From a virus, in the IMG/VR virus record IMGVR_UViG_3300035532_000075, positions 8,547 to 72,546 of that record: a stretch of DNA of 64,000 nucleotides. One strand, 5' to 3'. Position numbers and translations under genes: made by a program. The notes beneath the pieces were generated by a model. That model saw only the letters and a program-made list of their open reading frames with translations, searched no databases and was not told the origin of the DNA. This document shows, piece by piece, positions 6,416 through 46,167 of the stretch (positions are counted from its first letter, which is position 1; each line of letters starts with the position of its first letter).

Positions 6416-6419
6416 AACA

Positions 6420-7403: not shown

Positions 7404-7415
7404 TGTTATATCCTC

Positions 7416-8035
7416 CTATATATTATATCTTTTATTTAAAATTGCATGATACCAAGCTTTATGCCATTTTTCATCTTTATTGGCCGCAGAATTACAACTT
7501 CTACACACTGTAATTAAATTTGACGGGTGGCAATTTTGTTTGTTGTAATCTATATGATGGATAGTTAAATCATCTGGATTTTTTGAATCGCAATAAGGAT
7601 TCAAACACTTATTACCATCACGTTCACGAATATCAAGTTTAAATTCTTTATCTTTCCAAACCTCGCAGTAAGGTTCAAAAGATTTACCACCCTTCCAAGA
7701 AGGGTTTCCAGATCCAAACCTATTTAAAGCACTACAAGTAGGGCACCTATTACCATTTCTCCAAGCATTCCAAATAGTTTTATGTTTATGACCAACAGGA
7801 CATATATACCATAACTCAGAATCACTATTAATATATTTATTACTTAAAATGGTGTGCCCTTCTTTTTCAAACTGCTCTCTAACAAAATCTATAGTAAGCT
7901 TGGCTTTTCCTGAACAATGAGGACATCTCCACCCACTAAACCAATTAGCCCAAGTTGTACTATGTGTGTGTGCCCATTAGGACACAGATAATCTAATTTA
8001 GCACTACTATTTGTATAATCTTTGCTAAGTAAAGT
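7416..8035 (-). pseudogene. 3' part of a zinc-ribbon-repeat HNH homing endonuclease gene, interrupted by the tnpB element and frameshifted
   Basis: After the IS right end the frame reads TLLSKDYTNSSAKLDYLCPNGH. A (CA)5 tract at 7963-7972 then shifts the frame; (CA)4 restores THSTTWANWFSGWRCPHC...HHIDYNKQNCHPSNLITVCRSCN (HNH motif). Confidence 0.85.
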
Positions 8036-15959: not shown

Positions 15960-18900
15960 TTACTTTAAATTTCTAAAATCTAACGCTTGTTTAGCAAGCC
16001 GTGCAGCCTCTAAAGCTGACATGGATACTCTACTAATTTGAGAGGTTACATTATCCGAAAGTGAGCTTACCGACACACCTAAATTAGTAAGATCTTCCTG
16101 TACTCCTGATAATTTAGATGCTAAACGTGCATCTATATCTTTAGATAACTTTGACTCTAAATTAACTTCTAATTCTTTAACTTCAGTTTCTATTTTAGTA
16201 GTAGTATTTATTAATCTCTTATCCATAGCGTCTATAGTAGCCGCCAATAAATCAACCCTTTCTGCGCCAACGCCTTGACCAGATGCAACACTTGAAGGTA
16301 TATCTACCTTAACAGAAGAGCTTTTAATAGCTTTGGTTATAGCTGCCCCTAAACTAATAGCAGCCTCATTAACATCAATAGCAACTTCAGCTTTTACAGT
16401 GTTAGAAGATAATTCTAATTTTTTGTCTTCAACCTTCAAAACTATACTTTCCAAAGACCCAGTATCTAATTTGACAGGCTTATCTTCAACTTTAAGGGTG
16501 ACATCTTTTAAAGACCCAGTATCTAATTTGACAGGCTTATCTTCAACTTTAAGGGTGACATCTTTTAAAGACCCAGTATCTAATTTGACAGGCTTATCTT
16601 CAACTTTAAGGGTGACATCTTTTAAAGAACTATTATCCACCTGTACAAGTTTATCCTCTAATCTTAGCTCAATCTTACTTAATTCGCTTAAAAGTTCTCT
16701 TGAATCTATATTAACTGCAGGTAATTCTACTGATTTAGTGTCAACTTTAACAGGGGTTTTATCCACCTTAAGTACCACTGATCTTAATTCAGAAATAGCC
16801 TCACTAACATCCAACTCTATTTTTGGTACATTTAAAGATAAATTAGCAGAAGTATTTGTAAAATTAGTTGGTGGTGTTGCAGTGGATATATTACTCAAAG
16901 TACCACCATCAGCAAAAGCTGGAATGCTACCTTTTTTATTCATATAAGCTAAATTAGCATAACCTAATTTCTGGGCAGAATCTGTTTTAATTACATACTC
17001 GCCTCTACTTAAAAGAGCTGGATATTTATCATCTCCACGACTTCCAGCACCTGGCACATGACCACTTAACTCAGAATCACCTCCAGTACTATAACCCTGC
17101 AGCCAATTTTCAAAACCAAGAACATTTTCCCAATCTGATTTTTTTTGACCTTTATAAGCATCTTTAATCATCCTATTGATAATATCTTCAGATGAAGTAC
17201 CAGTACCAAAATAATTAAGGTCGATATCTTTTACAGTACCATACTCTTTTAATTTACCAAAAGCCCCACTATTACCAGTAGTATAGCGCTTGCTCACCGA
17301 ACCAGCATGGTTTTGTTTATCGAACCAACTTTTAGAAAGCATTTCTACTTCAACTGGCGCTTTAGTAACGGAACCTGCAGAAAGTGGCTTACGTTTATAC
17401 ATATCAAGATAAGCTTTATTACCGGCTTTTTCTATTAATTTTAAAAGGGAACTCTTTTCTGTAACTTGCTCATAAGCACTAACAACCTCACCACTATGTA
17501 ATTTGAACCCTATGGTCTCTTTGCCATCTTCACTTTTTATAGGTTCTACACCCTCAACACCAGCCAAACTTTTTCTCACTAAACGATTTGGAACTCTTTT
17601 AGTAGTTTCTTCCATAAGCCGTGGATCAGTAAACGGATTCCCACCTTCACGCATAACTTCATCAAACTTGCTATATGCCGACATAGCTTTGGATTGAAAA
17701 TCCAATTGTTTAATGTATTTTAATCTATCTTTAGGGTCTAAATTTTCATCATGTAATTTTTCAAAAAGATTACCAATACGTTGATTAATAAATTTAGCAT
17801 CTTTGTAGTATTTTAAAGCTACAGGATCAACTGTACCATGTTTGGGTACTTGACGCTTAAAATCCATACCAAATTCTTCTTGCGGTATTAAATCTTTGTA
17901 AGTTTTAGCCCACACGTTAGAATGATGAATGGCTTTTTTAGATGGTTTTATATTAGTAGGACGATAAGCTTTATTAGCATATCTATAAGAACTTTGCTCT
18001 ATTACGCCAGCAGATACGTCTCTACCACCAACATTAGTAGTAAACTTATGTACACCACGATAAGGATCGAAAGCATAATCACCATACTTCATACTTTCTT
18101 CAATACCAACCATAGAACCTTTATCTTTGATATGTTTGGCCAGATCTTTTTCCAAACCACGTCTGGTAGATAATATTTGTTCTGTATTATTTTTAAAAGC
18201 AGCGTCACTCAACATGGCCTTCAACAAACGGTCTTCAGCCTTAGATTTAGCATCAACCATAACATTGTACTGTGCTACTGCTGCAGTATTATAACCCCAT
18301 TTATTAGGTAAATGACCCTCACCACGGCGCATATTATTACCACTACTAATAGAATTATTTAAATAATCAGTAATGTCTTGAGCACTCCAAGATTTTTCAT
18401 AAATCGGATTATTTATAGCTTCATCTATTCCTGAAATAGTACGTGATGGATCATATGATTTACCAGTAGTTTCAACTATTTCAGAAAGAATACCACCACC
18501 AGGCCCAATGTTAGTAAATGATCTTACTTTTTTAGGGTCTACTTCTTCAGCGGCTCTACCTTCCCACTGTTCTTTTTTAAATTGGGCACTCTTTTTATTA
18601 AATTCTTCTAACCAAGAAGAAGTTTTTGAATTACCAGCTCCCCTTACTTTGCTGTGTTCTTCTTCGTAAACAGCTTTAGCCATATCAAGTCTTTTATTAT
18701 CAAGATATCTCTCGGGGTCTAAGACATAACCACCAACTGCACCACCATTAGCAAATTTCATATCTGGAAATAAATCACTTACCATATCATCTCCCCAAGA
18801 TGTGAGACGTGTGCCATACCCGTAAACCTCAGCAACAGCGTCTTCAGGTGACATATCAAACATGGTTTGGTTATCTTTCCTATTTGGATCTGCCATAATC

Positions 18901-21900
18901 TTTTCAAATTTTGCACCAAAATCTGCAAACCTTTCTTTAGCTCTGGCCGGGTCTCCAACTTTCTTAGAAGATATATATGTATTTTCGAACACATCACCAG
19001 GTAATTTATCTAATACTGCATTTATTTCAGCCATTTGTATTTTATTTTTACTAGCTCTATTAATACCGTGAGAAAGTTCATGGCCCAAAGTGTATAATAA
19101 ATCAGCTTTAATATCATCAGCCGCAACATTCAACGGTATATTATCTTTTTGGGCTTGGACAAAGTGCTTTTTAATTGCATTTTCATTTGAAATTTGCACA
19201 ACACCGGCTGGACCTTGCCTTGTAGGAATAACAGTATGCCGCCCACGATTATGCAATGGGTCCCCAACCTCAGTAGCCAGTCTTAGTGCATCATCTACAG
19301 GCATGTTTTGGGTAAACTCAGTACTACCAATAAATGATAAATGATCTTTTAATTCCGGATACCTTGTCATGTAAGAATCTATAGTTTTGCCCATATCTGA
19401 CAAAAACTGACGAGGTAAAATGTTTTCTCTAGAAAATCCAAAATCTAACCCATATTTTTCAGTATATGTCCTATTAAATTTATCTATGGCCAACATATCC
19501 TTGTTATAACTATCTTTACGCGTGGGATCTTTTTTCATAGGACTAAAACGATCATATAGACTAGGAAATTTTCTTTCAACTTTGGATTTTGATTTACTAA
19601 CTAAATCTTTTACAACCATTGCTGGATTATCTATTGCCCCAGACTCATTAGCTATTACAGATAACATGTCTCTAACTTTAGAAACCTTCCCATCACCAGA
19701 AACCACTTTGGCGGCCTTAATATAGGTGCCAACATCTGTTAATTTATTAAACTTAGACATAACACCAGTCCCACCAGCTAGAGAACCTATTACATCCGTA
19801 GTAACCCCTAAACCACCTTTACTTAAAGAATCTGTAATACTACTATATAAAGATGACCCTACACCACTAACAGTACCCATAATACCCTCAGTAGCAACTT
19901 TATTTAAAACTGAGTCCTTAATCTTACTAACACTCTTTAATGCACCACTTAAACCTTTGTTAGCTAAATAGTCCGAAGCGCCCTCTATACCTGAAAATAC
20001 ATCTAAAGGAACTTTAGTCAATCTACTAATCAACTCACCTGTAGCAAATGCCGCTTGTTTACCTACACCTTTTAAAGATAACCCTTCTTCTTTTACAGAA
20101 GATAATCTACCAGCTTCTAAATCATCTATTAAAGACTGCATTCCCCCACTAACATTACGAAAACCCCTGCCTTTGGTCATAGAATCAATAAAACCACCGT
20201 CAGCAAACGCAGGAATCAGTCCGCCATCGGCAGCCATTGCAGTAGGTAAAGTACCTTTTCTATTCATATGATCTAAATTAGCGTAGCCTATTTGTTGTGC
20301 TGTGTGGGCCCGTATTACAAACTCACCAGGACTTAAATAAGCAGCAACCTTATCTTCTCTAGGACCGCCTGGGCCTGAAACATGGCCGCCGATACTTGAT
20401 GGATGATCGCCAAAAGGTCCGCCAGTGCTAAATTTATTATCAGCACTTACCCCACTATTGTCCCCATTAGCTAAAGTTTCTAACATATTTCCCAAAGCGG
20501 CCAAACCTTTACTTATACCAGCAGCAGATGCCTTTAAACCACTACTTATAATATCAAAAGATGCATTTAAACCCTTACCTATACTCTCAAAAGATATCAA
20601 AGCCTCAGTCGGTTTTTCTGTAGGAAGTTCTCCGGTAAACAATGTATCAGGCGTACGAGCCATATTAATAGCATAACTTTTTTCAAGGTCTGTTTTTAGA
20701 TTGACTGAACCAGTCGTACCATCTTTATCCTCGTATGTATAGTTATTCTTTAAACTATAATCGATACGCTCTGGTAATCCCATCAAGGCTCTATATTTGT
20801 CACTATCAACCCCACTAAAATCGCTTTTACCTGTATAAAATTGCCAATCGTCAGTATACTTACTTGGCTTTTCTTTTCTATCTAAACCTAATAACTCCCT
20901 ATACTTCTCACTATCATCAGCTTTTGCATAAAACTGCCAATCTTTATAGTCTGTTTTTTTAGACCCTTCTCTACCACTCATAGCTTCCTCAAGAGCTGCA
21001 GTTGCTTCAGGAGCTATCTTAGCGGCTATAACTTTAACATAATTTAATATACCTTTAAGAGGCTCATTAACATAAGTCATCAAATTCTGCTGTTCTTCAT
21101 TAACAGCAAATTTAGAATATTTAGACATAAGTTCATCATATGCCGCTTTTATTTCTACAGGGTTTGCGCCCCTATACATCGTATCATCTGGTTTTATTGT
21201 AGATATAATTTTATCTATAGCTAACGCTTCTTTAGAACCTTCAACATACCCCTGAGTTGCTTTAAATTTCTCTAATTCCGCAATACGATCAGCACCAGAT
21301 ATTTTTTCACTGTAAGCCTTAGATAAGTTATCTTTAATAACACTATTAAGTCTGTCAATGTCAGTAAACTGTTCTGTACTAAGTACATCAGGTTTAGTAA
21401 AACGTAATTTTTCTAAATTCTCATATAATGTTGCTGCGGGCTGTATTGAGGCGGCGGCCAATTCATTTTGTTTTTTCTGTTCATAAGTAATCACATCACG
21501 CTTACGTTGAGTATCCAAATCATCTAACTGAGTCTGGACGCTCTCCATCTCTTCATAATTACCTGATTCCTGAGCCTTAATATAGGCATCTTCCAATTTG
21601 ACTCTTTGTAAATCATACTGACTAGACACACCGCTTGTTAAAGACATACCAAGCGAGTCAGCCAATCTCTGATCTTCTACAGATATAGCTATTGCGGCTT
21701 CTGGATGACTACCTCCTAAAAGCTTGTCTCGTTGATCATAATAAGCCTTTAAACCAGCTTCACTCTGTATAAATATATTAGCTGTAGCATTAGCTAAAGA
21801 ATCTTGAAATCCTTTAAAAGCTGTTTGAAATTCAGTCATCGCTTTAAGTGCTCGCTGAACATTCTTCATACTCTTTGACAATTTATCAGCTTCTGTAGTT

Positions 21901-30900: not shown

Positions 30901-33900
30901 TCAGTGAACTGACCTTTTTCTTTATTCCACTCTTCGGCATCACCAAACACAGTAGCAAGCTCTTCATGTTGTAGTTTAACATGTTTAGTACCAAACTTTT
31001 TTAACTGATCCGCTGACGTTGCGCCAGAAGTTCTAAAACCATACAATGGAGTAAGATTTTCTTCCGCAGTGGTACGTAATTGTATACCGCCTTCTTCTAA
31101 TTGGGTTTTTAATATAGCATTAGCATATTGTGTTGGCTTCCTACCTTTAAGTTTTTTAGCCTTATAGTCATCATCCCAGGAAGCTATTTGCCTAAGTAAA
31201 CCCTCTCTAGCAGCATCTTCAATCTGTTGAGATAATTCGCGCAAGAATCCCTCAAAACCTACATGCTGTATTATATACTTTTCCAATGTTTCTCTAACAT
31301 TAGCGCTATCTTTAAGTGCGTAACTAAGCTGGGCCCCAGCCTTTTCAGGTTCTGGCTGCTTAGCAGCTATCTTAAAAGCATCCTCACGTAGATTAGCAGT
31401 ACTTACCGTACCAAAATTTCTTTCTAAAGCCTTTTTATTTGCGTCATAAAACTCATTAAGAGCTTTATAGGAACCTTCCTCATTAGTAATTTTAGAAATA
31501 AGCTTATCAACGCCTTCTGGACCTTTAGATAGTAACTGAGCCATCTCAGTAGCGATAGGTATCTCGCCTGCATGTTTTACATCCAAACCTTTCTGAATAC
31601 CAACACGAATAAACTCATTCATCATGGTAGAAAACTCTTCTTCTATAGGGCCTGCTAATGACTTTAATTGTTCTGGAAAACGAGAAGCAAACTTCTCACT
31701 CCGTGCATATTCACCAGTACCATGAATGATGCCCCCACCAAAACCTACATTACGTTCAAATACTTTTAAAATCCTATTAAGGGACTCAGTATCACGGCCA
31801 GTATTGATTTTGAACAACTGCGCATTTATAGCATTAAGATATTTAGTATCATATAACTGCTCTTTCATGCCCCCTGCCACAGGTTTCATTACTTCAGGCC
31901 CCATCTCAACTAATTTGGCTATAAGAGCGTTAGTATATTCATTAGTATCAGTCTTACCCTCAATATCTTTAGGCTCAACTACTTTATTCAATTCAGCAGC
32001 TATCTCATTAATTTTGGACTGTTCTTTGAAAACCTCCGGTAAAACTTCTTTTAAAGCATTAAGTGGGCCCTGAGCTTTTCCAGAATAGCCTGGTTGATTT
32101 GCTAAAATACCTAATTGCTCATTTGGAGACAAATAATCCAGTTCTTTTGTTAAGAAAGGTCTTTCTAGAAAAGAAAATCCTTCAGTTGTAGGAAACTTCT
32201 TTTCAAAAGCTAATTGCTGCTCTGCTAAAATGTATTTACCAGTAGATGGCTCTAACGCATCAAAAGTAAATTGATCCATGAAAGTTTTTGCAGTAGTACG
32301 TTTGTCTTCAGAAGAAAAATCAGCAACAGTTTTAAAATGCTTTTCTATCTCTTTACGAGCTGCCATTGTTTTAGCAGCATGTACTTGTATTTGATCACCA
32401 TCAAAATCCAGTTTCTGCTGTTGTGCTATATATTTAGGAATAACATCAGAAATAGCCTGATCTAAAGTATTAATTGTCTCAGTTAACTTGGCTATACGTT
32501 CCTGATTTGGATCAGCTTCTCCCTGCTCAACTTCCCTAGCCTCTACAAGTTTGTCAGCCACACCTTCTACAGAAGCTAAAATCTTCTTAAAAGCTGCCAC
32601 ATCCATTTCAGGTAAACCTGGAGCCATTAAGGCATGCTTGGCTTTAGCCCCCATTTCCCCTGTAAGTAATTTTGCTTTATATGGCTGCACAGAAGAAGTA
32701 CCAGTAAATGGGAAACGTACACTTTCTATATAAGGAGTAACTTCTTTATCAAGAATGTGCTGAATGGCTTCCTGATCTGCGGGGCTGCCCTTAAGCTGCC
32801 CTCTATTACTTTCCAACATTTTTCTATATTTTAAAAGTTCAGATAAATTACGACCTTTTTCATAAGGTTTATCTTCTGTTGGATATACTCTTTCCAGTTT
32901 GCCAGAATCTGTCATTCTAAATTTTTTATCAAATACAGCTGGAATCTTTTTTGCATATTCCTCTGGTATACCTAACTCATGTTGGCCCAACACAGGCAAA
33001 CCTTTAGCAATATGTTTTTCTACAGCGGCCACATGCTTTTTAGTTACCTTTGTTGACATCTCTTTAGACACATTTGATAATTCTGATAAAGCAGTAGCCA
33101 GATCCGAATCTCCTGCCATTTCTACTTTACTCAAATCTTCTAAAACTTTTTCAAATTTGCGAAATTCATCAGTCTTATCTACAACAGCATTGACTGCTTT
33201 AGCCATAACAGATGGAATTTTTCTACTAAAAATTACCTCTTGTACAGAGCCAGTTTTACCTAAAGCTGTGTCTGCTAATGTATTATAATATTCAATTTTA
33301 GCTTTTTCTAAAGATTTTAACGCCCTTTGAAGTTGCTCGGTCCTATCCTCAGCTGTAGGAGGTTTAAACTGCAACGCTGTAGCTAAATTTTGTACACCAG
33401 TCAATCTTTGTTCTGGGGCTTCTCTTGTTGCTATTTTTCCCAACACTGACGCACTTTTATCATAAGCACCAGGTCTTAACTGACGCCCTTTAACATTTGG
33501 ACTGGTTGGATCTTCATAAGGCCCTATAATATTATCCACAGCCTGCTCTATAGTTTCAACTAAAGCAGATGCAATAGGCTTACCTTTTCCAAGTTGTCTT
33601 TGGAAAAATTCATTCATATACATCTCAATTGATTTTTCCTTAGTCTCACCAGTAGAAGGATCATTATAATACTGTGAGTAACTTGGATACAACATTTTAG
33701 GATCAACTGCAGTTTTTAATGCAGGGCTTAGCCTATTCAGCATATTTTTTAGTTCTATTACAGCCGGATCGTCCTCACCACCAGATACAGCATTACTTGC
33801 TATAGTACGTGCTTTTTTTCTAAAATCACCGAGATTCTTTTTTAAACGCCCAGTACTTAAATCTTCAAGTTGCCCTTCAGATAATTTGCCAGATTTTAAA

Positions 33901-36900
33901 TCATCAACTTTTTTAGCAGCACTTGCCAAAATTTGAATACGTCTAGAAATTAAATCCAGCCCCTGATGCCCAGCCATAGTAGGTTCGTCATAAGTAGACC
34001 TAGCTATCGCACTTGGAATATAAACAGACTCTCTCTCATCAGGCTGTGAAGTACTAGGTATACGTAGATTAACAGCGCCAGGAAAACGAGAAGAATCTAA
34101 AATAGTGTCATTTAAAAGATTAGTCATCTCATCACGTTTATTACCTATATCTGCTAACTCCTCTTTTGAAGCCATAACTCCTGTACTACCTTGAAAATCA
34201 TAAATATCTGAAATATCAACTTCTTGAGCAGCACCTAACAGAGCTTGACGAGCTTCTAAATTAGTAGGATTGATCGACTGTAGCGCCTTCATATATTCCC
34301 AATGCTTTTTAGCGTCTAAAGGAATTTCTTCTGACATTTGACCCATAAAAGCTGAATCTTCTCCAAAAATAGAAGCATAAGTACCATAAGCAGGTAAATT
34401 TAATTTGGTACCCTTCTTCTGTTTTTGAATATCACCAGAAGACCAACTTGCATATTGATGTGGATTTTCTACTATCTCAACAAACTTTGTACCAACCAAA
34501 CTTTTACGTTGTTCACCAAACTCATCAAATATGTTAGAATAATAACTAGCGTTCTTTTCTAATTCAACTAACTTATTTAATTTGTCTTCATAACCAGGTT
34601 TATCTTCAGTAACACCACGGGCCGCAAGTAAATCTTTCATATCAGATCTTAAACGCTCTAAATCCTTGGCCTTATCCCCAGTAGTATCGTACGCTTTAGC
34701 ATAACCTAACGCCTCACTTAATTTACTAAAACTCAACTTCTCATCTTCATGTCCTAAAAATTTAGAGTAAGTCTCTTTAGCAAATTCAGTTGCAATTACC
34801 GTAGGATCTCCACCTTTTGAATTAATTATATTATTCATAATAGTTTCTAAATTCTCAGGTTGCAGGCCACGTTTTGCCAAGCCAAAAGAACTAATACGAA
34901 TATCTATAGTCTTTTCTTTAAATAACTCACCACCTGGTTTTTGAGCTTTATATATATCCTTAAGGGCCTCTATACCTTTAACACCGTCTTCTAAATTAAC
35001 TCCAAGTTTAGAAAAAACATCCTTAATATCAGCAAATAATTTTACTTGTGGAGCAGCTTCTTCAGCGGATACCATTTTCAAATTCGGATCTTTAAACATA
35101 TCCAACATAAATTTGTTACCACTGCTTTCAAGTCGTCTCTGTAATTCCCCAACATCCGGGGCTTTATTTTTTAAAAACCCTCTACGAGCGCCTAAAATTT
35201 CACTAGCTAACTCACCCATACTTTTCGGAGCAATAGCAGTACCTAGTCCAGCCTTAGCACGTTCTTCCTCACTAAGTACTTTAACTGGAGCTGAATATAG
35301 TCGTTTTATATCGGCACCCGTTAATTCCATACCAGTACCTGTAGGAGAAATAGCTACACCTTTAGATCCTGCCCTTGTAGTAAATTTTCGGCCATAATAA
35401 TCAAAAAAAGTTTCTATTATTTTAGCTAACTGAACATTTAAATCTTTACCTCTAACTACCGTTACAGCTTTTGTAACTTCTTGAATAAGTGCTTTATCGG
35501 CCCTACCTTTATACTCTTCTTTTACTCCAAGAATATTTTGAATTAGTTTGTTTAAAGGCTCCACGGCTTTAGTGACATCAGCCAGCACCTTACCTTCTTC
35601 TATGTCACTTACACCTATATTACCGCCTTTAGCAAAAGAACCTAAAGTGTCTAATAAATTAGCATTACCCAATTTATCAGGAGCTACCATAGTCTTGACA
35701 GTTTGTGTCAGCACATCTGCTAACTTGCCAGAAATTAATATCTGATCTTCAAAAGTACTTGCGGTATTTCTTAACTCAGCAGTAACATTGAAACCATAAC
35801 CTTTCTCACCAAGTCTGCCTGATCTTATTAAATCAGACTCACGTTGTGACTGTAACGCTGGGGTAGTAGTACCTAAAATACCTGCCATTTTTGGATCAGG
35901 CACATAAGTATAAGCATTAGTAGTACTGGCAATATTACGACCCTTCTGTTGAAATTGGGCCCCAAACGGCATCAAAGATGTTAAATCATCAGTATACATT
36001 TTCAATGCTGTGGCATTTAATTTAGAAAGCTCGCCTATCTTCTCATATTCTTCTTCAGCATTCATCGCTACTTTACCACCAAAACGGTATTCATTCAATG
36101 TGGCAGCTTGTGATTCAGGCACACCTAAACTTGATATATCATATACGTCTAACGGTAATTTACGACCCTCTACACCAGCAACCGTCAATGCCTGGGTATC
36201 TGCAACATACTCCCTCAATGTTTTATTTAAATCACGTATGAATGTTTTCTGATCATCAGCAGTCATTTTAGAAGTACCCTCTTCAGCAAAAATAGGAGAG
36301 GTCATAGTCATCATATTAACTATCTTTTCTTGATGTGCGTAACGCCTTGGCCTGGCCTGGTCTACTATAGGAATGGTGCCTACCAACTTACCCAAAGCGT
36401 TTTCAAAATCACGAATTTTCTTATCCTGCCATGGGGCATTTGCCAAATTAGTAAGTACTGACGGTGATCCTGGTTGATCTGTAAGTATACGCTGCATGAC
36501 TTGATAAATGTTTTCAAAATCAACACGTTCTAAACTTTTTACAAAATCATATGCTGAAACTCCAGCCTGTTCCATAGCGTCTATAAATTTTTCAGTAGCA
36601 TCTACACTACCTTCAGCAAACTCCTTACCAAAATCTTGTTTTGCAGCAGATACCCTACCTAAAACTGCAGTAGGATCTTCTGACACACCTAATTTTTGCT
36701 CTCTACGACCAGCTATAACTGCAGCAGCATCAAACTGTTTAGCAATAAACTCTCTTGTCTCATAACTAGAAGATGCATAGTCCCTTAGCATATTTTTAGA
36801 AACTTCTTCAGCCTGATCTCTTTGTGTAGCACTAGGCCTATAACCTAACTCTTTTATTTTTGTAGAGTAGTCTTTATGTATATCAAATCTATCACTGCCT

Positions 36901-39761
36901 TTTAATATATCATACATTTCCTCAAAACCAGATCTGTACGTAGCAAACTTAGGTAATACTCTACTGCTACCCTGCTGTGTTTCAAAAATATTTGCACCTA
37001 AATCCACACCTTTATTGGTTACAGCTGGAACAGATGCTGGTATGGCTATAGTACGCACAAGCCCTTTTTCATCTTCTAAAATATCAGTAGCACGCATCTC
37101 ACCCACTGTTGATTTATATACACGTTGTAAAAAAGTAGCTTGTTTTTTATAAAGCTCTCCAAGAAGATCTTTAGATGGGAGTATACCAGCTGAATTATCC
37201 AAACCTTTTAAAGATATTAATTCATCTACATCACCTTGTGATAACCCCTGCCAACCTTCAATATCCTTTTTTGAAAATTGTTTTATCCAAGAACCAATAG
37301 TTTCCACTAACCTATCAGGCTTCATATCTTTAAGAAGACTCTTTTTTATTTCATTTTTACTTTTTTCAATAACATCAGGAATATTATAAGTTGCTTGTTT
37401 TGGAAGATTATAGTCTTCTACTAATTTAGAAACATTAGCCAATTGAAAAGAATATTGTTTACCAGAGGTTTTTTTATTATAGCCGCCAGCAAGTTTAAAA
37501 TAATCACTGATAGGTTGATCTTCACGCTCACGAACTACTCTCCAAGGACTTTTATATTCACCAGTCTCAGTATTTTTTAATGTGGCATCTATATTACCAA
37601 TTATAAAGCTTTTAAGTGTATTTAAAGACTCATTCAACTCTTTTCTATTTAATTCAGTAGCGGTAATTATACGCTTAGCACCATCTTCAACTAAACCAGC
37701 ATTATATAACTTTTTAGCGGTAGCCGCCATGTCCCCATAAGTATGAACATACTCTTGCCTAGTTCTATACTCAGGTTTAGGCTGAACATTATGCTGCGTA
37801 ATAGCATTGGTAGTTGGTAAACCTTGTTTTTCTTTATCAAAAGAGGCTCTACTCTGTTTTTCACTTTTACTTTCTACAGTAGCTGCCTCAGTTTTTGTAG
37901 ATTTTGCCACTTTCACATCAGAAGCCTTAACCTCTACTTTAGTAGTAGATGGTGCTACGGCTACACCATGCCTAATGGACTCTACCTGATCCGGGGTATA
38001 AGACAATAGGAAATCTCTTAAATAACGTACAGTAGTATCCACACTACCACCACGACCTTCATAAAAATTACGAGATTCACTAGACGTAGATGTCACCTCT
38101 CTATTCACCGTCTTTGCTAACTCTGGAATCGAACTACTACGTTCCTGAACTTCCTTTAACAAAGCTGTAGCATATAATATATTTTCAGATGAGGTGCTTT
38201 CATCAGATATTATTGCTTTTAATATCTTATCAAGCATAGTAACTATACCATCAAGTTCTTTGTCAGCTACCTGAAGTTCCTTCTTAGTATATCCAGATTG
38301 CTTGACTACGTGCCCAACATCAGCAGACTTTTTAATTGTAATTGCTTTTTGGTTTCCAGTTAGATTTGCTATGTCTTCATCAGTAAACATACTCTTATGT
38401 GGAAGATTTTTAAATCCAGAAGGTTTTACGTCAACAGGCACATTTTCTTTTATACCAGAAAGTTGTTTACTTAATAACCTACCAGCATCTGATGGCAAAG
38501 TGGGTTTGACTGGTAGTGCTATTTGTCCAATAGAACTATCAAAATCACTTTGAACTTCTTTAGTAGTAGTCTTTATTTTGGGAGTGGCTGTAAAAGTACC
38601 GTCAGCTAATTTAGTAACTTCCATCTCAATTACATCACTTACCTTTTTAGCAGATGATAACATTTTATCAGTAAGGATGTTATCTATAGAAGTATCATTA
38701 CCTTTACCTCTCTGCTTATACTCAGCAGATAATCTATATACTACATCACTAAACTGGTTAACAGCCTGCCCAAGAGCGTCCACATCGACAGATGCACCAG
38801 TAGTTTTAAGATTATTAGCCTCATTTGCAAAAACCTCAGCAGCTTTCACAAGTTTATCTAAATCACCTATTTTACCACTAAATTCATTGACAGCTTTAAC
38901 AAAATCGGTATTTGCAAGTTCTGGGGATACTTGTTGAATACTTTTAGAAAACGTAGTTATTAATCCTTCCATTAAAGCTACCGGATCTTTTTGATACTTT
39001 TCACGTACATTTGCTACTTGTGCTTTACCAGCCACCTCAGCTTTTTTATAGTATTGTATTAATGTATCAATATCAGAACGCAATGCGGTTCTAACTACTT
39101 TAGCACTATCAGATAATTCTTTGGCTGCGGATTTACCTGATTTATATACATCAACACCCTCCTTAGTAACAGCCAAACCTTTTTTAACTTTAGTAACAGG
39201 AGAATCTGTTTTACTTTGTACAACATCTGCTACATCCTTGATTACTTTAGCAGCACCTTTAATTACTTTGGCAGATTCTTTGACATCTTTATGTAACTTA
39301 TTAATGGAATGCATAGTACCGGTGGGGGTCTTTGAAGTTACAGTGGTCTCTAACTGCTTAGACACCATAGCACGCCCTCTTTTAGATAGAAAGATGCCTT
39401 TTGTCTCCAAAGCATCGAAAGCTCTCATAAGTTTTTTATCTAATAATCCTGTAAAAGATTTTAAAACAGAATCAATATTTATTAAAGATGGGTCGTCTGA
39501 AGATTTTACCTTTTTTTGTAAAATAGAAGCTATATCTTGACCTAAGTTTTTAAACTCATCAGAAAGTACTGATTCTAAAGCCTTTTTATCTTTAGAATCT
39601 TTAATAACTCCAGACAATTTTGAAATGGTATCATTTAGGTTCTCAAGTACAGTGCCAGTAATTACTTGAGAATTTATAGATGTGGATAGTGCTGGTAAAT
39701 TGGTAGGGTTAGATGCACCCTCTTCGAAAAGAAATGTGTATGTGTTGTTATTGTCAGCCAA
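15960..39761 (-). CDS. Giant multidomain tape measure protein fused to a two-barrel RNA polymerase, a PD-(D/E)XK nuclease and an HExxH peptidase-like domain
   Basis: 7,933-aa uninterrupted ORF with TTG start and AGGAGG SD at 39775-39770. Canonical TMP position after the tail tube and two chaperones. Domain motifs are listed in separate features. Confidence 0.92.
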   Translation of the reverse strand: MADNNNTYTFLFEEGASNPTNLPALSTSINSQVITGTVLENLNDTISKLSGVIKDSKDKKALESVLSDEFKNLGQDIASILQKKVKSSDDPSLINIDSVLKSFTGLLDKKLMRAFDALETKGIFLSKRGRAMVSKQLETTVTSKTPTGTMHSINKLHKDVKESAKVIKGAAKVIKDVADVVQSKTDSPVTKVKKGLAVTKEGVDVYKSGKSAAKELSDSAKVVRTALRSDIDTLIQYYKKAEVAGKAQVANVREKYQKDPVALMEGLITTFSKSIQQVSPELANTDFVKAVNEFSGKIGDLDKLVKAAEVFANEANNLKTTGASVDVDALGQAVNQFSDVVYRLSAEYKQRGKGNDTSIDNILTDKMLSSAKKVSDVIEMEVTKLADGTFTATPKIKTTTKEVQSDFDSSIGQIALPVKPTLPSDAGRLLSKQLSGIKENVPVDVKPSGFKNLPHKSMFTDEDIANLTGNQKAITIKKSADVGHVVKQSGYTKKELQVADKELDGIVTMLDKILKAIISDESTSSENILYATALLKEVQERSSSIPELAKTVNREVTSTSSESRNFYEGRGGSVDTTVRYLRDFLLSYTPDQVESIRHGVAVAPSTTKVEVKASDVKVAKSTKTEAATVESKSEKQSRASFDKEKQGLPTTNAITQHNVQPKPEYRTRQEYVHTYGDMAATAKKLYNAGLVEDGAKRIITATELNRKELNESLNTLKSFIIGNIDATLKNTETGEYKSPWRVVREREDQPISDYFKLAGGYNKKTSGKQYSFQLANVSKLVEDYNLPKQATYNIPDVIEKSKNEIKKSLLKDMKPDRLVETIGSWIKQFSKKDIEGWQGLSQGDVDELISLKGLDNSAGILPSKDLLGELYKKQATFLQRVYKSTVGEMRATDILEDEKGLVRTIAIPASVPAVTNKGVDLGANIFETQQGSSRVLPKFATYRSGFEEMYDILKGSDRFDIHKDYSTKIKELGYRPSATQRDQAEEVSKNMLRDYASSSYETREFIAKQFDAAAVIAGRREQKLGVSEDPTAVLGRVSAAKQDFGKEFAEGSVDATEKFIDAMEQAGVSAYDFVKSLERVDFENIYQVMQRILTDQPGSPSVLTNLANAPWQDKKIRDFENALGKLVGTIPIVDQARPRRYAHQEKIVNMMTMTSPIFAEEGTSKMTADDQKTFIRDLNKTLREYVADTQALTVAGVEGRKLPLDVYDISSLGVPESQAATLNEYRFGGKVAMNAEEEYEKIGELSKLNATALKMYTDDLTSLMPFGAQFQQKGRNIASTTNAYTYVPDPKMAGILGTTTPALQSQRESDLIRSGRLGEKGYGFNVTAELRNTASTFEDQILISGKLADVLTQTVKTMVAPDKLGNANLLDTLGSFAKGGNIGVSDIEEGKVLADVTKAVEPLNKLIQNILGVKEEYKGRADKALIQEVTKAVTVVRGKDLNVQLAKIIETFFDYYGRKFTTRAGSKGVAISPTGTGMELTGADIKRLYSAPVKVLSEEERAKAGLGTAIAPKSMGELASEILGARRGFLKNKAPDVGELQRRLESSGNKFMLDMFKDPNLKMVSAEEAAPQVKLFADIKDVFSKLGVNLEDGVKGIEALKDIYKAQKPGGELFKEKTIDIRISSFGLAKRGLQPENLETIMNNIINSKGGDPTVIATEFAKETYSKFLGHEDEKLSFSKLSEALGYAKAYDTTGDKAKDLERLRSDMKDLLAARGVTEDKPGYEDKLNKLVELEKNASYYSNIFDEFGEQRKSLVGTKFVEIVENPHQYASWSSGDIQKQKKGTKLNLPAYGTYASIFGEDSAFMGQMSEEIPLDAKKHWEYMKALQSINPTNLEARQALLGAAQEVDISDIYDFQGSTGVMASKEELADIGNKRDEMTNLLNDTILDSSRFPGAVNLRIPSTSQPDERESVYIPSAIARSTYDEPTMAGHQGLDLISRRIQILASAAKKVDDLKSGKLSEGQLEDLSTGRLKKNLGDFRKKARTIASNAVSGGEDDPAVIELKNMLNRLSPALKTAVDPKMLYPSYSQYYNDPSTGETKEKSIEMYMNEFFQRQLGKGKPIASALVETIEQAVDNIIGPYEDPTSPNVKGRQLRPGAYDKSASVLGKIATREAPEQRLTGVQNLATALQFKPPTAEDRTEQLQRALKSLEKAKIEYYNTLADTALGKTGSVQEVIFSRKIPSVMAKAVNAVVDKTDEFRKFEKVLEDLSKVEMAGDSDLATALSELSNVSKEMSTKVTKKHVAAVEKHIAKGLPVLGQHELGIPEEYAKKIPAVFDKKFRMTDSGKLERVYPTEDKPYEKGRNLSELLKYRKMLESNRGQLKGSPADQEAIQHILDKEVTPYIESVRFPFTGTSSVQPYKAKLLTGEMGAKAKHALMAPGLPEMDVAAFKKILASVEGVADKLVEAREVEQGEADPNQERIAKLTETINTLDQAISDVIPKYIAQQQKLDFDGDQIQVHAAKTMAARKEIEKHFKTVADFSSEDKRTTAKTFMDQFTFDALEPSTGKYILAEQQLAFEKKFPTTEGFSFLERPFLTKELDYLSPNEQLGILANQPGYSGKAQGPLNALKEVLPEVFKEQSKINEIAAELNKVVEPKDIEGKTDTNEYTNALIAKLVEMGPEVMKPVAGGMKEQLYDTKYLNAINAQLFKINTGRDTESLNRILKVFERNVGFGGGIIHGTGEYARSEKFASRFPEQLKSLAGPIEEEFSTMMNEFIRVGIQKGLDVKHAGEIPIATEMAQLLSKGPEGVDKLISKITNEEGSYKALNEFYDANKKALERNFGTVSTANLREDAFKIAAKQPEPEKAGAQLSYALKDSANVRETLEKYIIQHVGFEGFLRELSQQIEDAAREGLLRQIASWDDDYKAKKLKGRKPTQYANAILKTQLEEGGIQLRTTAEENLTPLYGFRTSGATSADQLKKFGTKHVKLQHEELATVFGDAEEWNKEKGQFTERGRYANKYRRAEAVAQNMADAFGDFSKIESTRGAGSYDKMLLSTIDNMRADQKLIHNILSTYKKESTVAGKDIVDVDIMDRLLGKEPLGYLAKNVLGTGSGLDIKNELERISRATGTAPLSKAEEDDLKFKYGTKASELGGERARVKQDRSTKPWSDEKLRSVTENETKAIMDQVLAVAQLNKVIRTAETKSADSLFMADFVPGSDSIATVEEEYKRREQQLNANRASLDKGISATIKAQSFGYDAGMSDLGTGGGGGMLPPLITPPGGLTPSVSGGIVPVHIESIKSGIGLFLGDSSRVKPSNIGPAAAGIPPSYEEVRTRLDKDIARMEELTKKITGSLNVQKDSDFGKKYRASALKGGLAPEEQVKAIMKTMLGEEKSSDILSSSSFLGTAIHSKLEDVYRKEKPGTIIEQPVRYQSPVAGEVSGTIDVLRKDESGKVSEVIDIKTISDRNYKIFKEIADQLKAEKGEVTFEAFQEKLTTHPAKISDQIRFDKMGGVASQLNLYLKALESESADAFAHFYSNTADEYKDPIVIKFKYDEERLNRDMESIVEARRRIESAESPKPYAKTASFEKAKQIAEDLKKPENQVTEEEVNELLDRAKEYYKYATKKPSMYEGLPSTGVDLGDEAYKNIAKARQAMEQQAAYLNDLEKPPKPVYGAQAKFTHQALSTLHSKASDIQSERFGVSLSQTGMDKFSPKIKEELEKVLQSGPRGTKFYNLLNKLKEEDDTFSDADFTKAWKAYRVAVGDYYVQAMEDALANIGKQEQGSAAEAKAFSNYKDVVSSFQRQVKSDLGKATDIYTINRSYVDPQSAKDAGVYMNATQLASKGAGVLGEDDTLRGLLEKILDLDIHDKSTPVPRDTVGMVLKELIGLDKDLIDMYTDETAVSRYGTTLFDSMDFKNLKQGISRLREGLEEVIGMATKDQYSSEQKAHLDEVLKQLKGLEKTYINLDLENESFVNASGENIVPTIIEPPKQLPRKWQEAIANRNVAKLEDYFATPSAEGGPLRGDVYTYDKKAFGPNNKMMQHERFDFIKSFDYFDKDQGKWLGEFDRKYKNITKTVAEGNRTFSIAIERVIKWGAAATLVYGGMNYLKESISYISDIEVAMAKLQMVMNPLSTSFSALEQSAISFAKQYGISIEHVLDSMRVFAQQGLSQQEVLDRTKTATVAENITDLSSTDATEALTAAMRVFNTEGEGSMRFLDSWSEVESKAAIKAGDLADAIKKAASAGKNAGFTFDQLNGMVAAIGSTTRQTGKEVGTSLRFIFNRLSTEKGPKTLGQFGISTQDINTGQLRSGFDVLSDLSEQWDELTRAQKLNVAQALGGTRQYNAVLTLMDNWDETLRSVTNSINSKGSAERRNAILMKTYAKQVEQLKAAAGELKIEFGKIVLPGFKVGVTSLKTLIELFNNIPTEIKLAGAAFTAFFAYMIKGSSMTDSFFDHLNKGKAVFRDLKTEFKKGLDMSAYELFGIGDSTKNSNIMGLKTIKQGATLSELEGPFSKLGYLALSTGRDFNSFLSLVSKDTGKAANAVGSLVKSLGEGINYIGTYLGMGANLIGQPELAGMVKIGTKVASKPLEFVGEKTSGLGKYGIDVADYIKKNATGPSAGIVQSVGPMLGVAAAGGLALPQLIKIYKRLSESAEEYKNSLNDEIGATEKEQSTVRALISEYERMDKAKKKLTAKAVEGALVTEDSFGNTKGIATQLAKLEDQYTDFKNKVATSDINFVVGYTLQGDAVLKGGMEDNLAAMLRRSSGKKQFEVAGKKMDIAARFANEATQTDGIQSWKYHIKEIVKNFPLIGEKLGDAISVGPKKAMYELQKSLHKMLTAKNANPLSNAFDDAIKELQERQIELRAAIKIDAKQAKNIIDSIDTSDMSPLEINATFNKAIYDDLYELLSMSSTMYKRAGVTGGDVRGQYVLSAANPNYKNYLAPTADLTMERFRNTGLMPRIGSGETMPVKVGDILKLSETASKDLGGVSGRQAILGSERYEESGKVLTKYFLSFADAEGKYRKKFIPGIKALDGMVQAAVSLSEVSNKLTGDFASLSEMVTGASAGMSALDKKSLTKRSVSLGPKFYSDIATEVLLQTNKGYDVKTRSYTTPAYKANYTDEFINNYAEKMEQWETTLASYRASDKPADTKLTGGFGEQLKELQDVLKNNSVVMQFRSALEDLSKTIEDSDAALVKNIALEKRRYEVQKNLSGLMAGIPEGLENFDVGTFELKDLSASQRMLYDNRGSQELVKAFNIEKKRQDAYTSQMDAITSTMLDVQRINETSLGFSSRFTTQAEFDKYAETIRYTGGDLGSAEIVSAVDASSDLLNQSNTELIAIKTGIYEVADLLKSPEDRWSSKVEKAQIDVAKAEKGTWYSNKSVAGAMRIADLQRIQSATAAEGRSEEAALMEKDIGKLTKELILRTSVGDVVRSLTPISKDAQYKILNSAISESGYSASDIVDYMDRAAVANKDLTKKQQKSIKKGAGAYREATAKKEPSFFNTDTLGFGALGLSIFAGSSAARKNEQITELNKRMGNVQKEIATQGEKPDPKLLTELEALKRAKEGLEASAMIGTTLQQLSTTGFLTYAGSKAAMGNSDAATAKLMMGAVATHTLFKSMGMENLKKVPEFAKDFDKFLKGLGEKIGTVVKNKDPKAVEEALKKHGSKVKDRINEAAKEYFIGLKKYSEIQGRETGKTDADVAVEVENAKKIYSSNKKAQEKRAAIEEEFAVQSDAGKQFVLDLVKLETAMGLVRAAFSDAASDAKIAGMENTAEEQTKIFFDKIYSVSPKFANDIISSIVSGRDVDTLPVERGEPIKGPSTAFNVEDSINAVLAELHDQLAAVGDDYSKSSQLLAVLASATALKKRFTTLITTLETFNRSLHDSITSMEISAKYQGPSTFGDVLKGYIGDIKTAQSYSELSPQQQLYAGGSGAFKELITDYQKGSKLMDKYVTALSNFESEVYSSEETIKSLEEKFNMLKNSGEATDGELEATAQTLSDNKKILETRRKVLKDTTTEADKLSKSMKNVQRALKAMTEFQTAFKGFQDSLANATANIFIQSEAGLKAYYDQRDKLLGGSHPEAAIAISVEDQRLADSLGMSLTSGVSSQYDLQRVKLEDAYIKAQESGNYEEMESVQTQLDDLDTQRKRDVITYEQKKQNELAAASIQPAATLYENLEKLRFTKPDVLSTEQFTDIDRLNSVIKDNLSKAYSEKISGADRIAELEKFKATQGYVEGSKEALAIDKIISTIKPDDTMYRGANPVEIKAAYDELMSKYSKFAVNEEQQNLMTYVNEPLKGILNYVKVIAAKIAPEATAALEEAMSGREGSKKTDYKDWQFYAKADDSEKYRELLGLDRKEKPSKYTDDWQFYTGKSDFSGVDSDKYRALMGLPERIDYSLKNNYTYEDKDGTTGSVNLKTDLEKSYAINMARTPDTLFTGELPTEKPTEALISFESIGKGLNASFDIISSGLKASAAGISKGLAALGNMLETLANGDNSGVSADNKFSTGGPFGDHPSSIGGHVSGPGGPREDKVAAYLSPGEFVIRAHTAQQIGYANLDHMNRKGTLPTAMAADGGLIPAFADGGFIDSMTKGRGFRNVSGGMQSLIDDLEAGRLSSVKEEGLSLKGVGKQAAFATGELISRLTKVPLDVFSGIEGASDYLANKGLSGALKSVSKIKDSVLNKVATEGIMGTVSGVGSSLYSSITDSLSKGGLGVTTDVIGSLAGGTGVMSKFNKLTDVGTYIKAAKVVSGDGKVSKVRDMLSVIANESGAIDNPAMVVKDLVSKSKSKVERKFPSLYDRFSPMKKDPTRKDSYNKDMLAIDKFNRTYTEKYGLDFGFSRENILPRQFLSDMGKTIDSYMTRYPELKDHLSFIGSTEFTQNMPVDDALRLATEVGDPLHNRGRHTVIPTRQGPAGVVQISNENAIKKHFVQAQKDNIPLNVAADDIKADLLYTLGHELSHGINRASKNKIQMAEINAVLDKLPGDVFENTYISSKKVGDPARAKERFADFGAKFEKIMADPNRKDNQTMFDMSPEDAVAEVYGYGTRLTSWGDDMVSDLFPDMKFANGGAVGGYVLDPERYLDNKRLDMAKAVYEEEHSKVRGAGNSKTSSWLEEFNKKSAQFKKEQWEGRAAEEVDPKKVRSFTNIGPGGGILSEIVETTGKSYDPSRTISGIDEAINNPIYEKSWSAQDITDYLNNSISSGNNMRRGEGHLPNKWGYNTAAVAQYNVMVDAKSKAEDRLLKAMLSDAAFKNNTEQILSTRRGLEKDLAKHIKDKGSMVGIEESMKYGDYAFDPYRGVHKFTTNVGGRDVSAGVIEQSSYRYANKAYRPTNIKPSKKAIHHSNVWAKTYKDLIPQEEFGMDFKRQVPKHGTVDPVALKYYKDAKFINQRIGNLFEKLHDENLDPKDRLKYIKQLDFQSKAMSAYSKFDEVMREGGNPFTDPRLMEETTKRVPNRLVRKSLAGVEGVEPIKSEDGKETIGFKLHSGEVVSAYEQVTEKSSLLKLIEKAGNKAYLDMYKRKPLSAGSVTKAPVEVEMLSKSWFDKQNHAGSVSKRYTTGNSGAFGKLKEYGTVKDIDLNYFGTGTSSEDIINRMIKDAYKGQKKSDWENVLGFENWLQGYSTGGDSELSGHVPGAGSRGDDKYPALLSRGEYVIKTDSAQKLGYANLAYMNKKGSIPAFADGGTLSNISTATPPTNFTNTSANLSLNVPKIELDVSEAISELRSVVLKVDKTPVKVDTKSVELPAVNIDSRELLSELSKIELRLEDKLVQVDNSSLKDVTLKVEDKPVKLDTGSLKDVTLKVEDKPVKLDTGSLKDVTLKVEDKPVKLDTGSLESIVLKVEDKKLELSSNTVKAEVAIDVNEAAISLGAAITKAIKSSSVKVDIPSSVASGQGVGAERVDLLAATIDAMDKRLINTTTKIETEVKELEVNLESKLSKDIDARLASKLSGVQEDLTNLGVSVSSLSDNVTSQISRVSMSALEAARLAKQALDFRNLK
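16453..16628 (-). repeat. Perfect 57-bp tandem repeat x3 (19-aa unit KDVTLKVEDKPVKLDTGSL) in the TMP C-terminus
   Basis: Unit aaagacccagtatctaatttgacaggcttatcttcaactttaagggtgacatctttt occurs three times head to tail, with degenerate flanking copies at the protein level. Confidence 0.95.
16902..17093 (-). repeat. Second copy of the TMP C-terminal GG module
   Basis: YSTGG...GHVPGAGSRGDDKYPALLSRGEYVIKTDSAQKLGYANLAYMNKKGSIPAFADGG. Confidence 0.8.
18820..19420 (-). other. Zincin-like metallopeptidase domain within the TMP (boundaries approximate)
   Basis: LYTLGHELSHG (HExxH, H6894-H6898, nt 19082-19068) followed by PEDAVAEVYG, a plausible third-ligand motif. Confidence 0.65.
20190..20435 (-). 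repeat. First copy of the TMP C-terminal GG module
   Basis: FSTGG...GHVSGPGGPREDKVAAYLSPGEFVIRAHTAQQIGYANLDHMNRKGTLP...AFADGG, the GG.V.GPG...D...A.LS.GEFV motif typical of TMP C-termini. Confidence 0.8.
26600..27680 (-). other. Tape measure core domain (TP901 / PhageMin_Tail-like), about aa 4030-4390
   Basis: IKWGAAATLVYGGMNYLKESISYISDIEVAMAKL...AKQYGISIEHVLDSMRVFAQQG...DLADAIKKAASAGKNAGFTFDQLNGMVAAIGSTTRQTGKEVGTSLRFIFNRL. Confidence 0.9.
29230..29760 (-). other. PD-(D/E)XK (RecB/Cas4-like) nuclease domain within the TMP
   Basis: GTAIHSKLE (G3346), EQPV...SGTIDVL, VIDIKT (D3400-x-K3402), QLNLY (Q3457-Y3461). Confidence 0.8.
31500..36200 (-). other. Single-chain two-barrel (cellular-type) RNA polymerase domain within the TMP (boundaries approximate)
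   Basis: Beta-like motifs: SLMPF; GFNV...FEDQILIS (F1337); GRKFTTRAGSKGV (K1459, K1467); TIDIRISSFGLAKRGLQPENLET (T1618). Beta'-like motifs: KTGSVQEVIFSRK; PVLGQHELGIPEEYAKKI (H2261); RFPFTGTSSVQ (R2349); LDFDGDQIQVH (D2452, D2454, D2456; nt 32408-32394). Confidence 0.9.
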
Positions 39762-46166: not shown

Positions 46167-46167
46167 A

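Follow-up and report, generated by a model that had tools for sequence, protein, structure and literature searches.

The 64,000-nt stretch of viral DNA analysed here (the window; positions 8,547 to 72,546 of the IMG/VR virus record IMGVR_UViG_3300035532_000075) contains a gene that codes for a protein of 7,933 amino acids (aa). In our view this giant protein is probably the tape measure protein (TMP) of a jumbo phage of ~260 kb, uncultured and with a probably non-contractile tail, and carries a putative virion RNA polymerase (RNAP) and a nuclease that would be ejected with it. The chain is laid out as a TP901-type tape measure core preceded by an N-terminal extension of ~3,500 aa, in which a 700-aa module, a 2,200-aa RNAP, a linker and the nuclease follow one another, while its C-terminal third is lineage-specific and consists of a HExxH region flanked by two copies of the GG module, with repeats and a C-terminal tail. 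An earlier reading made from the sequence alone (the sequence-only reading) had combined a TMP with an RNAP and a PD-(D/E)XK nuclease in this one chain; our analysis supports it, the RNAP being of the two-barrel kind and the modules at the ends variable. We observe the identities of the domains, the conservation of their catalytic residues, the architecture of the family, a pair of RNAPs in related genomes and a marked contrast in cysteine content.

The whole gene lies at 15960..39761 on the minus strand, as are all features of the giant protein given below in window coordinates. It is 23.8 kb long and has no internal stop codon according to the list of open reading frames (ORFs) and the translation; it starts with TTG, 8 nt downstream of an AGGAGG Shine-Dalgarno sequence, and ends with TAA, the ATG of the next gene being at 15943. 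All long ORFs of the window are on the minus strand and the GC content is 30-38% throughout. The source record, of 78,342 bp, is a metagenomic fragment with a CheckV completeness of ~30%, which might suggest that the ORF is a chimera made in assembly or that several genes have been fused artefactually. However, the base composition is even along the giant ORF, a 7,955-aa copy with 99% identity is present on other contigs, and a length-matched search gave at least 70 homologue clusters of 4.5-8.0 thousand residues (kaa), of which 68 out of 70 exceed 6.4 kaa and every one carries PF10145. The contigs that carry these homologues are independent, come from JGI, ENA, NCBI and Logan and reach 318 kb in length; in over 70 diverged sequences of full length the domains follow one another in the same order. 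The sequence-only reading had named chimerism as the test of its proposal; because at least 70 homologue clusters from independent contigs share the architecture, the giant ORF is not an assembly artefact, and we regard the chimeric explanation as having almost no chance of being correct.

The tape measure backbone is the conserved part of the protein comprising aa 3600-5200 (24162..28964), as defined by Pfam, PHROG, BLAST coverage and tblastn. PF10145 (PhageMin_Tail) matches aa 4082-4280 (window 26922-27518) with 108.3 bits, the cut-off being 33.2, and reaches 115.5 bits in a six-frame search. Eleven PHROG TMP families match aa ~4000-4800 over 300-900 residues, and tblastn aligns ~400 aa of the core at 27-31% identity to TMPs of large Bacillus and Staphylococcus siphophages, for example vB_BanS_Nate and SPbeta-like phages. 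This similarity hints at a Bacillota host. The giant gene is found in a local order of an ORF of ~470-630 aa, small ORFs of ~250 and ~340 aa, the giant gene itself and an ORF of ~680-700 aa, and the same order is present in a close relative and in a distant complete member of 4,089 aa. The contig holds no second TMP candidate. The tail sheath family PF04984 was not found in five records, which lends slight support to a non-contractile tail, slight because these phages are so divergent.

Coverage of the protein by BLAST alignments of 70 homologues reveals which of its parts are constant. The stretches aa ~700-2900 and ~3600-5200 are found in about 65 of the 70 and the nuclease region in about 55, and the variable parts are aa 1-700, 2900-3300 and most of 5200-7933, with aa 6700-7500 nearly private to this lineage. 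Judged from these sequences, the RNAP-nuclease-core backbone is fixed while both termini accept different modules. The domain order given in that reading holds, with corrected boundaries for the RNAP: the polymerase is present as proposed, but its extent, given as aa ~1200-2750, is now aa ~700-2900. Its unassigned N-terminus of ~1,200 aa consequently shrinks to ~700 aa, since aa 700-1250 are conserved in the family and model as the beta-like half of the RNAP. The term cassette, used there for the entire protein, suits the ends (~700 aa at the N-terminus and ~1,700 aa at the C-terminus) but not the RNAP, nuclease and core, which do not vary. The GG modules (aa ~6444 and ~7557), the HELSH sequence (aa 6894), the DFDGD motif (aa 2452) and the 19-aa repeats were all confirmed, whereas of its hydrophobic segments only one strong segment, aa 4562-4584, is seen with a 19-aa Kyte-Doolittle window. 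Between the RNAP and the nuclease lies a poorly conserved linker (aa 2901-3330; 29772..31061), which is rich in Gly and Pro near aa 3210-3250 and kept in ~32-45 of the 70 homologues. In one relative (L002:5331-28923) two abutting ORFs, of 4,530 and 4,028 aa, take the place of the giant gene, and a HHH_3 DNA-binding domain is present in the second, downstream half; a frameshift, a sequencing error and a true two-gene form are all possible causes of the split.

For the RNAP, two alignments were made, A1 (aa 1700-2899, 43 sequences) and A2 (aa 700-1760, 39 sequences), with sequences that share 22-52% identity, and each was folded with AlphaFold2 (AF2). The beta'-like half (aa 1761-2900; 31062..34481) is defined by its AF2 model, by structural alignment with VIA and by Foldseek ranks. 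Its model (aa 1700-2899) has a predicted local distance difference test score (pLDDT) of 83 and a predicted template modelling score (pTM) of 0.71. In an exhaustive search with VIA-align, the best matches of this model are the largest subunits of multisubunit RNAPs: human Pol I A190 has a Z of 12.8 (403 residues aligned), Rpb1 12.5, archaeal A' 12.1, vaccinia Rpo147 10.9 and M. tuberculosis beta' 10.7, and for the half overall a Z of 12.2-13.0 is given over 330-455 aligned residues. Single-chain relatives score lower or align over a shorter length, as seen for QDE-1 (Z 11.3, 207 aligned) and P74-26 gp62 (Z 8.7, 197 aligned). The top Foldseek ranks are almost all beta'/Rpb1, and when the top 961 Foldseek chains were re-aligned, 508 reached Z >= 8, all 50 of the re-aligned entries listed being beta', Rpb1, A190 or C160. 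These alignments span the largest subunits from about residue 20 to the C-terminus. In the predicted model the beta' alignments begin at N-terminal clamp residues, and model residues 114-480 align to the archaeal RNAP clamp domain 3qqc (Z 8.6, 148 aligned). The RNAP of the giant protein therefore appears, as far as the model goes, to be cell-like and to possess a clamp-like part.

The beta-like half (aa 701-1760; 34482..37661) is assigned from its AF2 model, VIA, invariant motifs and hhalign. Its model (aa 700-1760) has a pLDDT of 79, and its longest co-linear matches in VIA are the second-largest RNAP subunits (Z 6.0-7.8, 366-407 aligned), such as plastid beta (Z 7.8, 366 aligned), Xanthomonas beta (7.0, 407 aligned) and African swine fever virus RPB2 (6.9). 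Beta pieces of the non-virion RNAPs of AR9 and phiKZ are also among the matches. Taken alone, the fold match of this predicted half is suggestive. The multisubunit beta/beta' enzymes and the AR9/phiKZ non-virion RNAPs are thus the best structural matches of the polymerase, with the order beta then beta', but here the two halves form a single chain within what would be a virion protein.

The motifs of both halves fit the fold assignments. The Mg-binding DFDGD sequence at aa 2452-2456 is invariant in all 43 aligned sequences and present in 69 of the 70 homologues, and its region aligns to NADFDGDQMAVH of E. coli RpoC (residues 458-469). The beta-like half has a FEDQILIS motif at aa ~1337, of which the ED pair (aa 1338-1339) is invariant, and the sequence GRKFTTRAGSKGV at aa ~1457-1469. 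In A2 the invariant positions include E639 and D640 together with G758, K760, R764, G766, K768 and G769, which form the pattern GxKxxxRxGxKG (G-K-R-G-K-G-V at aa 1457-1469), and hhalign aligns this basic motif to residues 1064-1076 of E. coli RpoB. From the fold matches and the motif alignments together, the RNAP is therefore placed at aa ~700-2900 with the beta-like half first. Two homologues, P0048 (7,100 aa, DFDGD at 765) and P0055 (6,792 aa, DFDGD at 696), begin at the beta'-like half; possible reasons are a beta-like half encoded by its own gene upstream or truncation of the ORFs. P0138, considered as a standalone form of 2,260 aa, was rejected because its sequence is cut off at a contig end.

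An exhaustive search with the A1 profile against 1.84 billion representatives gave 133 matches at E <= 0.001, corresponding to 133 clusters at 50% identity, nearly all of them proteins of 4-8 kaa or their fragments; no cellular RpoB or RpoC was among them at this threshold. The RNAP region has no match in 50,697 GenBank phage records by nucleotide or protein searches, and no description of the family was found in the searchable literature. Against the PDB, phmmer with aa 1100-3700 gave no match, and the A1 profile gave coiled-coil noise and a non-significant RPC1 match at the DFDGD motif (E 1.5).

A link to the cellular enzymes is provided by a second RNAP. Four weaker A1 matches (P0162, P0164, P0167 and P0169) are proteins of 1,000-1,161 aa that contain DFDGD and 9-18 Cys and sit among replication-type phage genes. 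An alignment of this standalone family, A4, matches the beta-like barrel region of the fused RNAP over 194 columns (hhalign Prob 98.2%, E 4.6e-14) and the beta' N-terminal region over 184 columns (Prob 97.9%, E 6.4e-13), and in the PDB it matches beta/Rpo2 (E 7.5e-7) and beta'/Rpb1 (E 0.0045-0.02). Because A4 matches both, the fused RNAP is linked to the cellular RNAPs by transitivity. A full-length gene of the A4 type (1,088-1,180 aa, 1,069-1,200 bits) is present in three of five large IMG/VR relatives with a giant TMP, and one of the three is a 268,764-bp record that is rated 100% complete. On the strength of these three genomes, the complete record included, we describe the phages of this group as having genomes of ~230-270 kb with two related RNAPs, one fused to the TMP and one free. 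The standalone protein of ~1,000-1,180 aa is probably the non-virion RNAP. Members of this compact single-chain beta-beta' family (~1,000-1,180 aa, with DFDGD) occur at L054 (G001:C1:44394-47393), L053 and L055, and their neighbours in the same jumbo phages are a helicase, RNase H, COOH-NH2 ligases and GATases.

The nuclease, at aa 3331-3480 (29322..29771), is a Cas4/RecB-like PD-(D/E)XK enzyme without Fe-S cysteines, identified by profile matches and invariant motifs. In the alignment A3 (aa 3280-3540, 31 sequences), E3367, D3385, D3400, K3402, Q3457 and Y3461 are invariant and a His at aa 3350 is nearly so, which places the PD-(D/E)XK motifs at aa 3350-3461. The A3 profile matches the PDB entries 4ic1 (E 1.7e-5), which is titled 'uncharacterized protein' and which we take to be the Sulfolobus Cas4 SSO0001, and 4r5q, a Cas4-family exonuclease (E 0.04). 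The nuclease thus shares with the Cas4/RecB group of these two entries the same set of motifs and a significant profile match. Cas4 typically carries an Fe-S cluster held by four cysteines. Such a cluster is impossible in the giant protein because it has no Cys at all, and unlike Cas4 the nuclease is embedded in a putative virion protein and is not CRISPR-associated.

The absence of cysteine is in fact a property of the entire chain: there is no Cys in 7,933 aa, and the 70 homologues (P0002-P0071) have 0-4 Cys each. In the remaining 35 ORFs of the window, by comparison, 190 of 11,259 residues are Cys (1.7%), a frequency at which ~134 would be expected in the giant protein, and the standalone RNAP paralogues of the same genomes have 16-18. 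Long ordinary TMPs are similarly poor in cysteine, with 1 Cys in 3,079 aa in Bacillus phage Nate and none in 2,757 aa in a Staphylococcus SPbeta-like phage, their neighbours having 0.3-0.6%; in Thermus phage P23-45 the TMP gp96 has no Cys in 5,002 aa and its neighbours have 0.17%. The RNAP and nuclease parts of the giant protein exclude Cys as strictly as the tape measure core. Because they are under the same constraint, this suggests indirectly that the enzyme domains share the fate of the TMP, that is, that they are stored in and passed through the tail channel and the cell envelope. It could be that cysteine exclusion is a general sequence marker of proteins of the tail channel.

A TMP that carries a virion RNAP is of a kind already published. 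The gp96 protein of P23-45 (Oshimavirus) is a 5,002-aa tape measure whose N-terminal ~1,200 aa are the virion RNAP; it is full-size in virions, has an active RNAP and transcribes the pre-early genes, including the gene of the non-virion RNAP gp64, and its authors described the TMP-RNAP fusion as a previously unsuspected association (Chaban et al., Nat Commun 2024, PMC10770324). As in gp96, a single giant chain has a two-barrel DFDGD RNAP on the N-terminal side of its tape measure; as in P23-45, there is a second, standalone RNAP, here in the genomes of relatives, and the whole fused chain is free of Cys. However, the two differ in several respects. The gp96 RNAP is ~1,200 aa long and begins at residue 1, whereas the RNAP described here has ~2,200 aa and follows a 700-aa module. 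The former is described as clamp-less and flat, whereas the latter is, in the predicted model, co-linear with the whole of beta/beta' and has a clamp-like part. A M23 peptidase and no PF10145 match are found in gp96, in contrast to PF10145 and a HExxH region in the giant protein, and the Cas4-like nuclease has no counterpart in the domain description of gp96, which reports no nuclease. The genomes are also larger, at ~230-270 kb compared with 84 kb. Alignment of A1 and A2 to gp96 residues 1-1200 with hhalign gave only spurious short alignments (Prob <= 1%), A4 matched gp96 only at the generic DFDGD barrel (Prob 79%), and the entry 8h2m appears only at Foldseek rank 11 (E 0.21). P23-45 gp96 and crAss gp66 are not among the VIA matches listed, but a relation, in the case of gp96 a distant one at the level of the fold, may still exist. 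It is likely that the fusion arose here independently of P23-45, as far as sequences and models can indicate; we hold this loosely because the enzymes diverge beyond the reach of sequence methods and the clamp rests on a predicted model.

The protein also resembles two further groups. The virion RNAPs of crAss-like phi14:2 (gp66) and N4 are likewise inside giant virion proteins and are thought to couple DNA entry to the first transcription, but the publications describe the large proteins to which they are fused as being of unknown function, not as tape measures. Polyvalent proteins combine many enzyme domains for which co-delivery with DNA has been proposed, often with a metallopeptidase as the proposed separator (Iyer et al., J Bacteriol 2017, PMC5512222), and the giant protein is like them in having many enzymatic domains in one chain, variable modules and a HExxH region. 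Tape measure proteins are not mentioned in that paper. The signature Pfam domains LPD and MuF were not found at E <= 1 on the fragments of the giant protein that were scanned, and Atlas links to domains of the polyvalent class are weak (0.77-0.86).

Taken together with the P23-45 precedent, these observations lead us to a model in which the tail is probably the route by which the phage brings transcription machinery of its own into the cell. Delivery with the genome is plausible by analogy, because gp96 is full-size in virions and the chain lacks Cys as ordinary TMPs do; location in the virion, ejection, activity and timing are what we infer from this. By analogy with siphophages, the whole chain would lie in the tail channel with its C-terminus at the tip and its RNAP-nuclease end beside the DNA, and it would be ejected before or together with the DNA. 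The fused polymerase would then act as the virion RNAP and transcribe the first-entering genes, which would be expected to include the gene of the ~1,100-aa cytoplasmic RNAP paralogue, the next to take over. More speculatively, the tethered nuclease may act on DNA at entry, either by resecting the leading end of the genome to a single-stranded template or by attacking host DNA, and the HExxH region may cleave the chain after delivery or act on the cell wall.

Several results weigh against this interpretation. At the level of structure, neither RNAP model reaches E <= 1e-3 in Foldseek searches of the PDB and BFVD, and the best Z of the beta-like model (7.8) is within background, unrelated models being able to reach 7-8 according to the tool. 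The standalone RNAP was not found in two of the five large relatives, and the source contig (~30% complete) has no second RNAP. The clamp-like region of the model leaves the passage of a bulkier RNAP through the tail unexplained; the authors of the P23-45 work consider that it is the absence of a clamp that lets their RNAP pass through the tail channel. Neither Pfam nor PHROG matches the ORFs that flank the TMP gene, where the tail tube and the chaperone would be encoded. Finally, Pfam calls no RNAP family at its own threshold on the giant protein, and PDDEXK_1 scores 19.6 bits where the cut-off is 22 (E 9.7e-4). The unreached Pfam thresholds would suit the idea that both enzyme-like parts, that of the RNAP and that of the nuclease, have lost catalysis and are relics which just lengthen the chain or serve as a scaffold. 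However, all catalytic residues are invariant in sequences diverged to 22-30% identity, namely DFDGD, the ED pair, both Lys and the Arg in the beta motif, and E, D, D-x-K and Q-x-x-x-Y in the nuclease, and dead domains would be expected to lose such residues. We therefore think it very unlikely that these parts are relics.

A clamp-like RNAP part that may not fit the tail channel would also be accommodated if the RNAP-nuclease half were cleaved off at assembly, or worked only in the producer cell, so that the C-terminal ~4,000 aa alone served as the TMP of the virion. Processing could take place in the Gly/Pro-rich, weakly conserved linker (aa ~2900-3330), a HExxH region is present in the giant protein, and the gene split into 4,530 and 4,028 aa indicates that the chain can exist in pieces. 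That split falls after the TMP core, however, and not between the enzymes and the core. Cys is excluded from the enzymes as it is from the core, whereas the cytoplasmic paralogue has 16-18, and a second cytoplasmic RNAP would be little needed where a standalone one is already encoded. In P23-45, the RNAP domain is found in virions within full-size gp96. Such a cleavage is thus an unlikely alternative, though of those considered here the one that we would take most seriously, and we prefer delivery of the intact chain.

The length of the tail bears on a further alternative. With 0.15 nm per residue as a rule of thumb, on which the figures of the sequence-only reading are based, the tail would be ~0.6 μm long if the chain is counted from the core onward, or ~1.2 μm if the whole chain is counted, and we choose neither. 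A 5,002-aa TMP accompanies a tail of ~800 nm in P23-45, a ratio that fits the whole chain, yet the P23-45 authors propose that the RNAP domains remain folded as a ~19-nm 'caterpillar' (preprint by the P23-45 authors). A tail of 1.2 μm would be longer than any described, which, with the lack of Pfam or PHROG identification of the neighbouring tail genes, might instead point to a head-packed internal or ejection protein with a TMP-like domain, whose length is unrelated to that of the tail; the virion RNAP fusions of crAss-like and N4-related phages, which are not tape measures, would be its models. Against this stand the 108-bit match to PF10145, the matches to 11 PHROG TMP families over 300-900 residues and the 27-31% identity over ~400 aa to annotated siphophage TMPs. 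The synteny of two mid-sized ORFs, the giant gene and an ORF of ~700 aa is moreover kept in distant relatives, and no other TMP candidate exists on the contig. Head packing therefore seems improbable to us, and a true tape measure remains the preferred assignment.

Until now, the sole characterised TMP-fused RNAP was that of one small group of Thermus phages. What is new here is a large family in mesophilic jumbo phages, with another TMP backbone, a larger and more cell-like RNAP, a nuclease and variable ends. The 133 clusters suggest that a TMP-fused RNAP is a recurrent solution in large uncultured phages, and that another polymerase, closer to the cellular ones, and another TMP backbone can serve the same strategy, with a tethered nuclease, which may have a role at DNA entry, as an added element. 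This raises the mechanical question of how a polymerase of 2,200 residues with a clamp-like part would pass through a tail channel of a few nanometres. The presence in one genome of a Cys-free fused enzyme and a Cys-bearing standalone paralogue provides a natural experiment that could show which demands ejection makes on an enzyme. A bolder reading, which is possible but against which we lean slightly, is that the TMP-RNAP fusion arose at least twice, and that the version seen here, with a cell-like clamped beta-beta' RNAP and a Cas4-like nuclease on a TP901-type TMP, is widespread in mesophilic jumbo siphophages with tails that may exceed 1 μm. If so, strict cysteine exclusion would be a marker by which ejected enzymes could be predicted from the sequence of any phage genome.

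The termini of the protein are its variable parts. The N-terminal module (aa 1-700; 37662..39761) is common to only ~3-12 of the 70 homologues; it has no Pfam assignment and the Atlas feature search was uninformative. In P0052 the corresponding variable module contains a RNase_T (DEDD) exonuclease domain, PF00929, at aa 241-344, and the same RNase_T subclade includes P0056, P0062, P0063, P0066 and P0067. At the other end, GG module 1 (aa 6444-6530; 20172..20432), a module conserved at the C-terminus of tape measures, is recognised by a PHROG TMP match and by homology to GG module 2 (aa 7557-7625; 16887..17093), which was itself found by BLASTP to module 1 (E 4e-21, 38% identity). Four further PHROG families, three of them annotated as tape measure, match aa 6456-6549 of module 1. 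Between the modules is a lineage-specific insert (aa 6640-7550; 17112..19844), delimited by its motif and the homologue search, which contains HELSH at aa 6894 and ~540 unassigned residues; a search among shorter proteins gave just three close homologues. Pfam does not match the HExxH region, and its Atlas leads are weak ('Peptidase' and LPD families, 0.86-0.90). The 19-aa (57-nt) repeat is present in 3.1 copies at aa 7712-7770 (16453..16628), and the copies are 100% identical.

Elsewhere in the window, a 661-aa ORF at 60773-62758 (minus strand) with 1 Cys has a weak PHROG portal match (E 2.8e-4). Hardly any of the other structural genes is matched by PHROG or Pfam, so this group of phages is very far from cultured phages. 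In the window, Rfam at gathering thresholds detected neither a group I intron nor any other family of RNAs, so that introns receive no support from this search, and ARAGORN gave no match. A 419-aa ORF at 8081-9340 (minus strand) matches PHROG 506 'transposase' (E 2.5e-38). Four homing-endonuclease genes are dispersed in the structural module, all on the minus strand: a LAGLIDADG gene at 43556-44377, two HNH genes at 44766-46196 and 51985-53493, and a GIY-YIG/HNH-like gene at 59740-60780.

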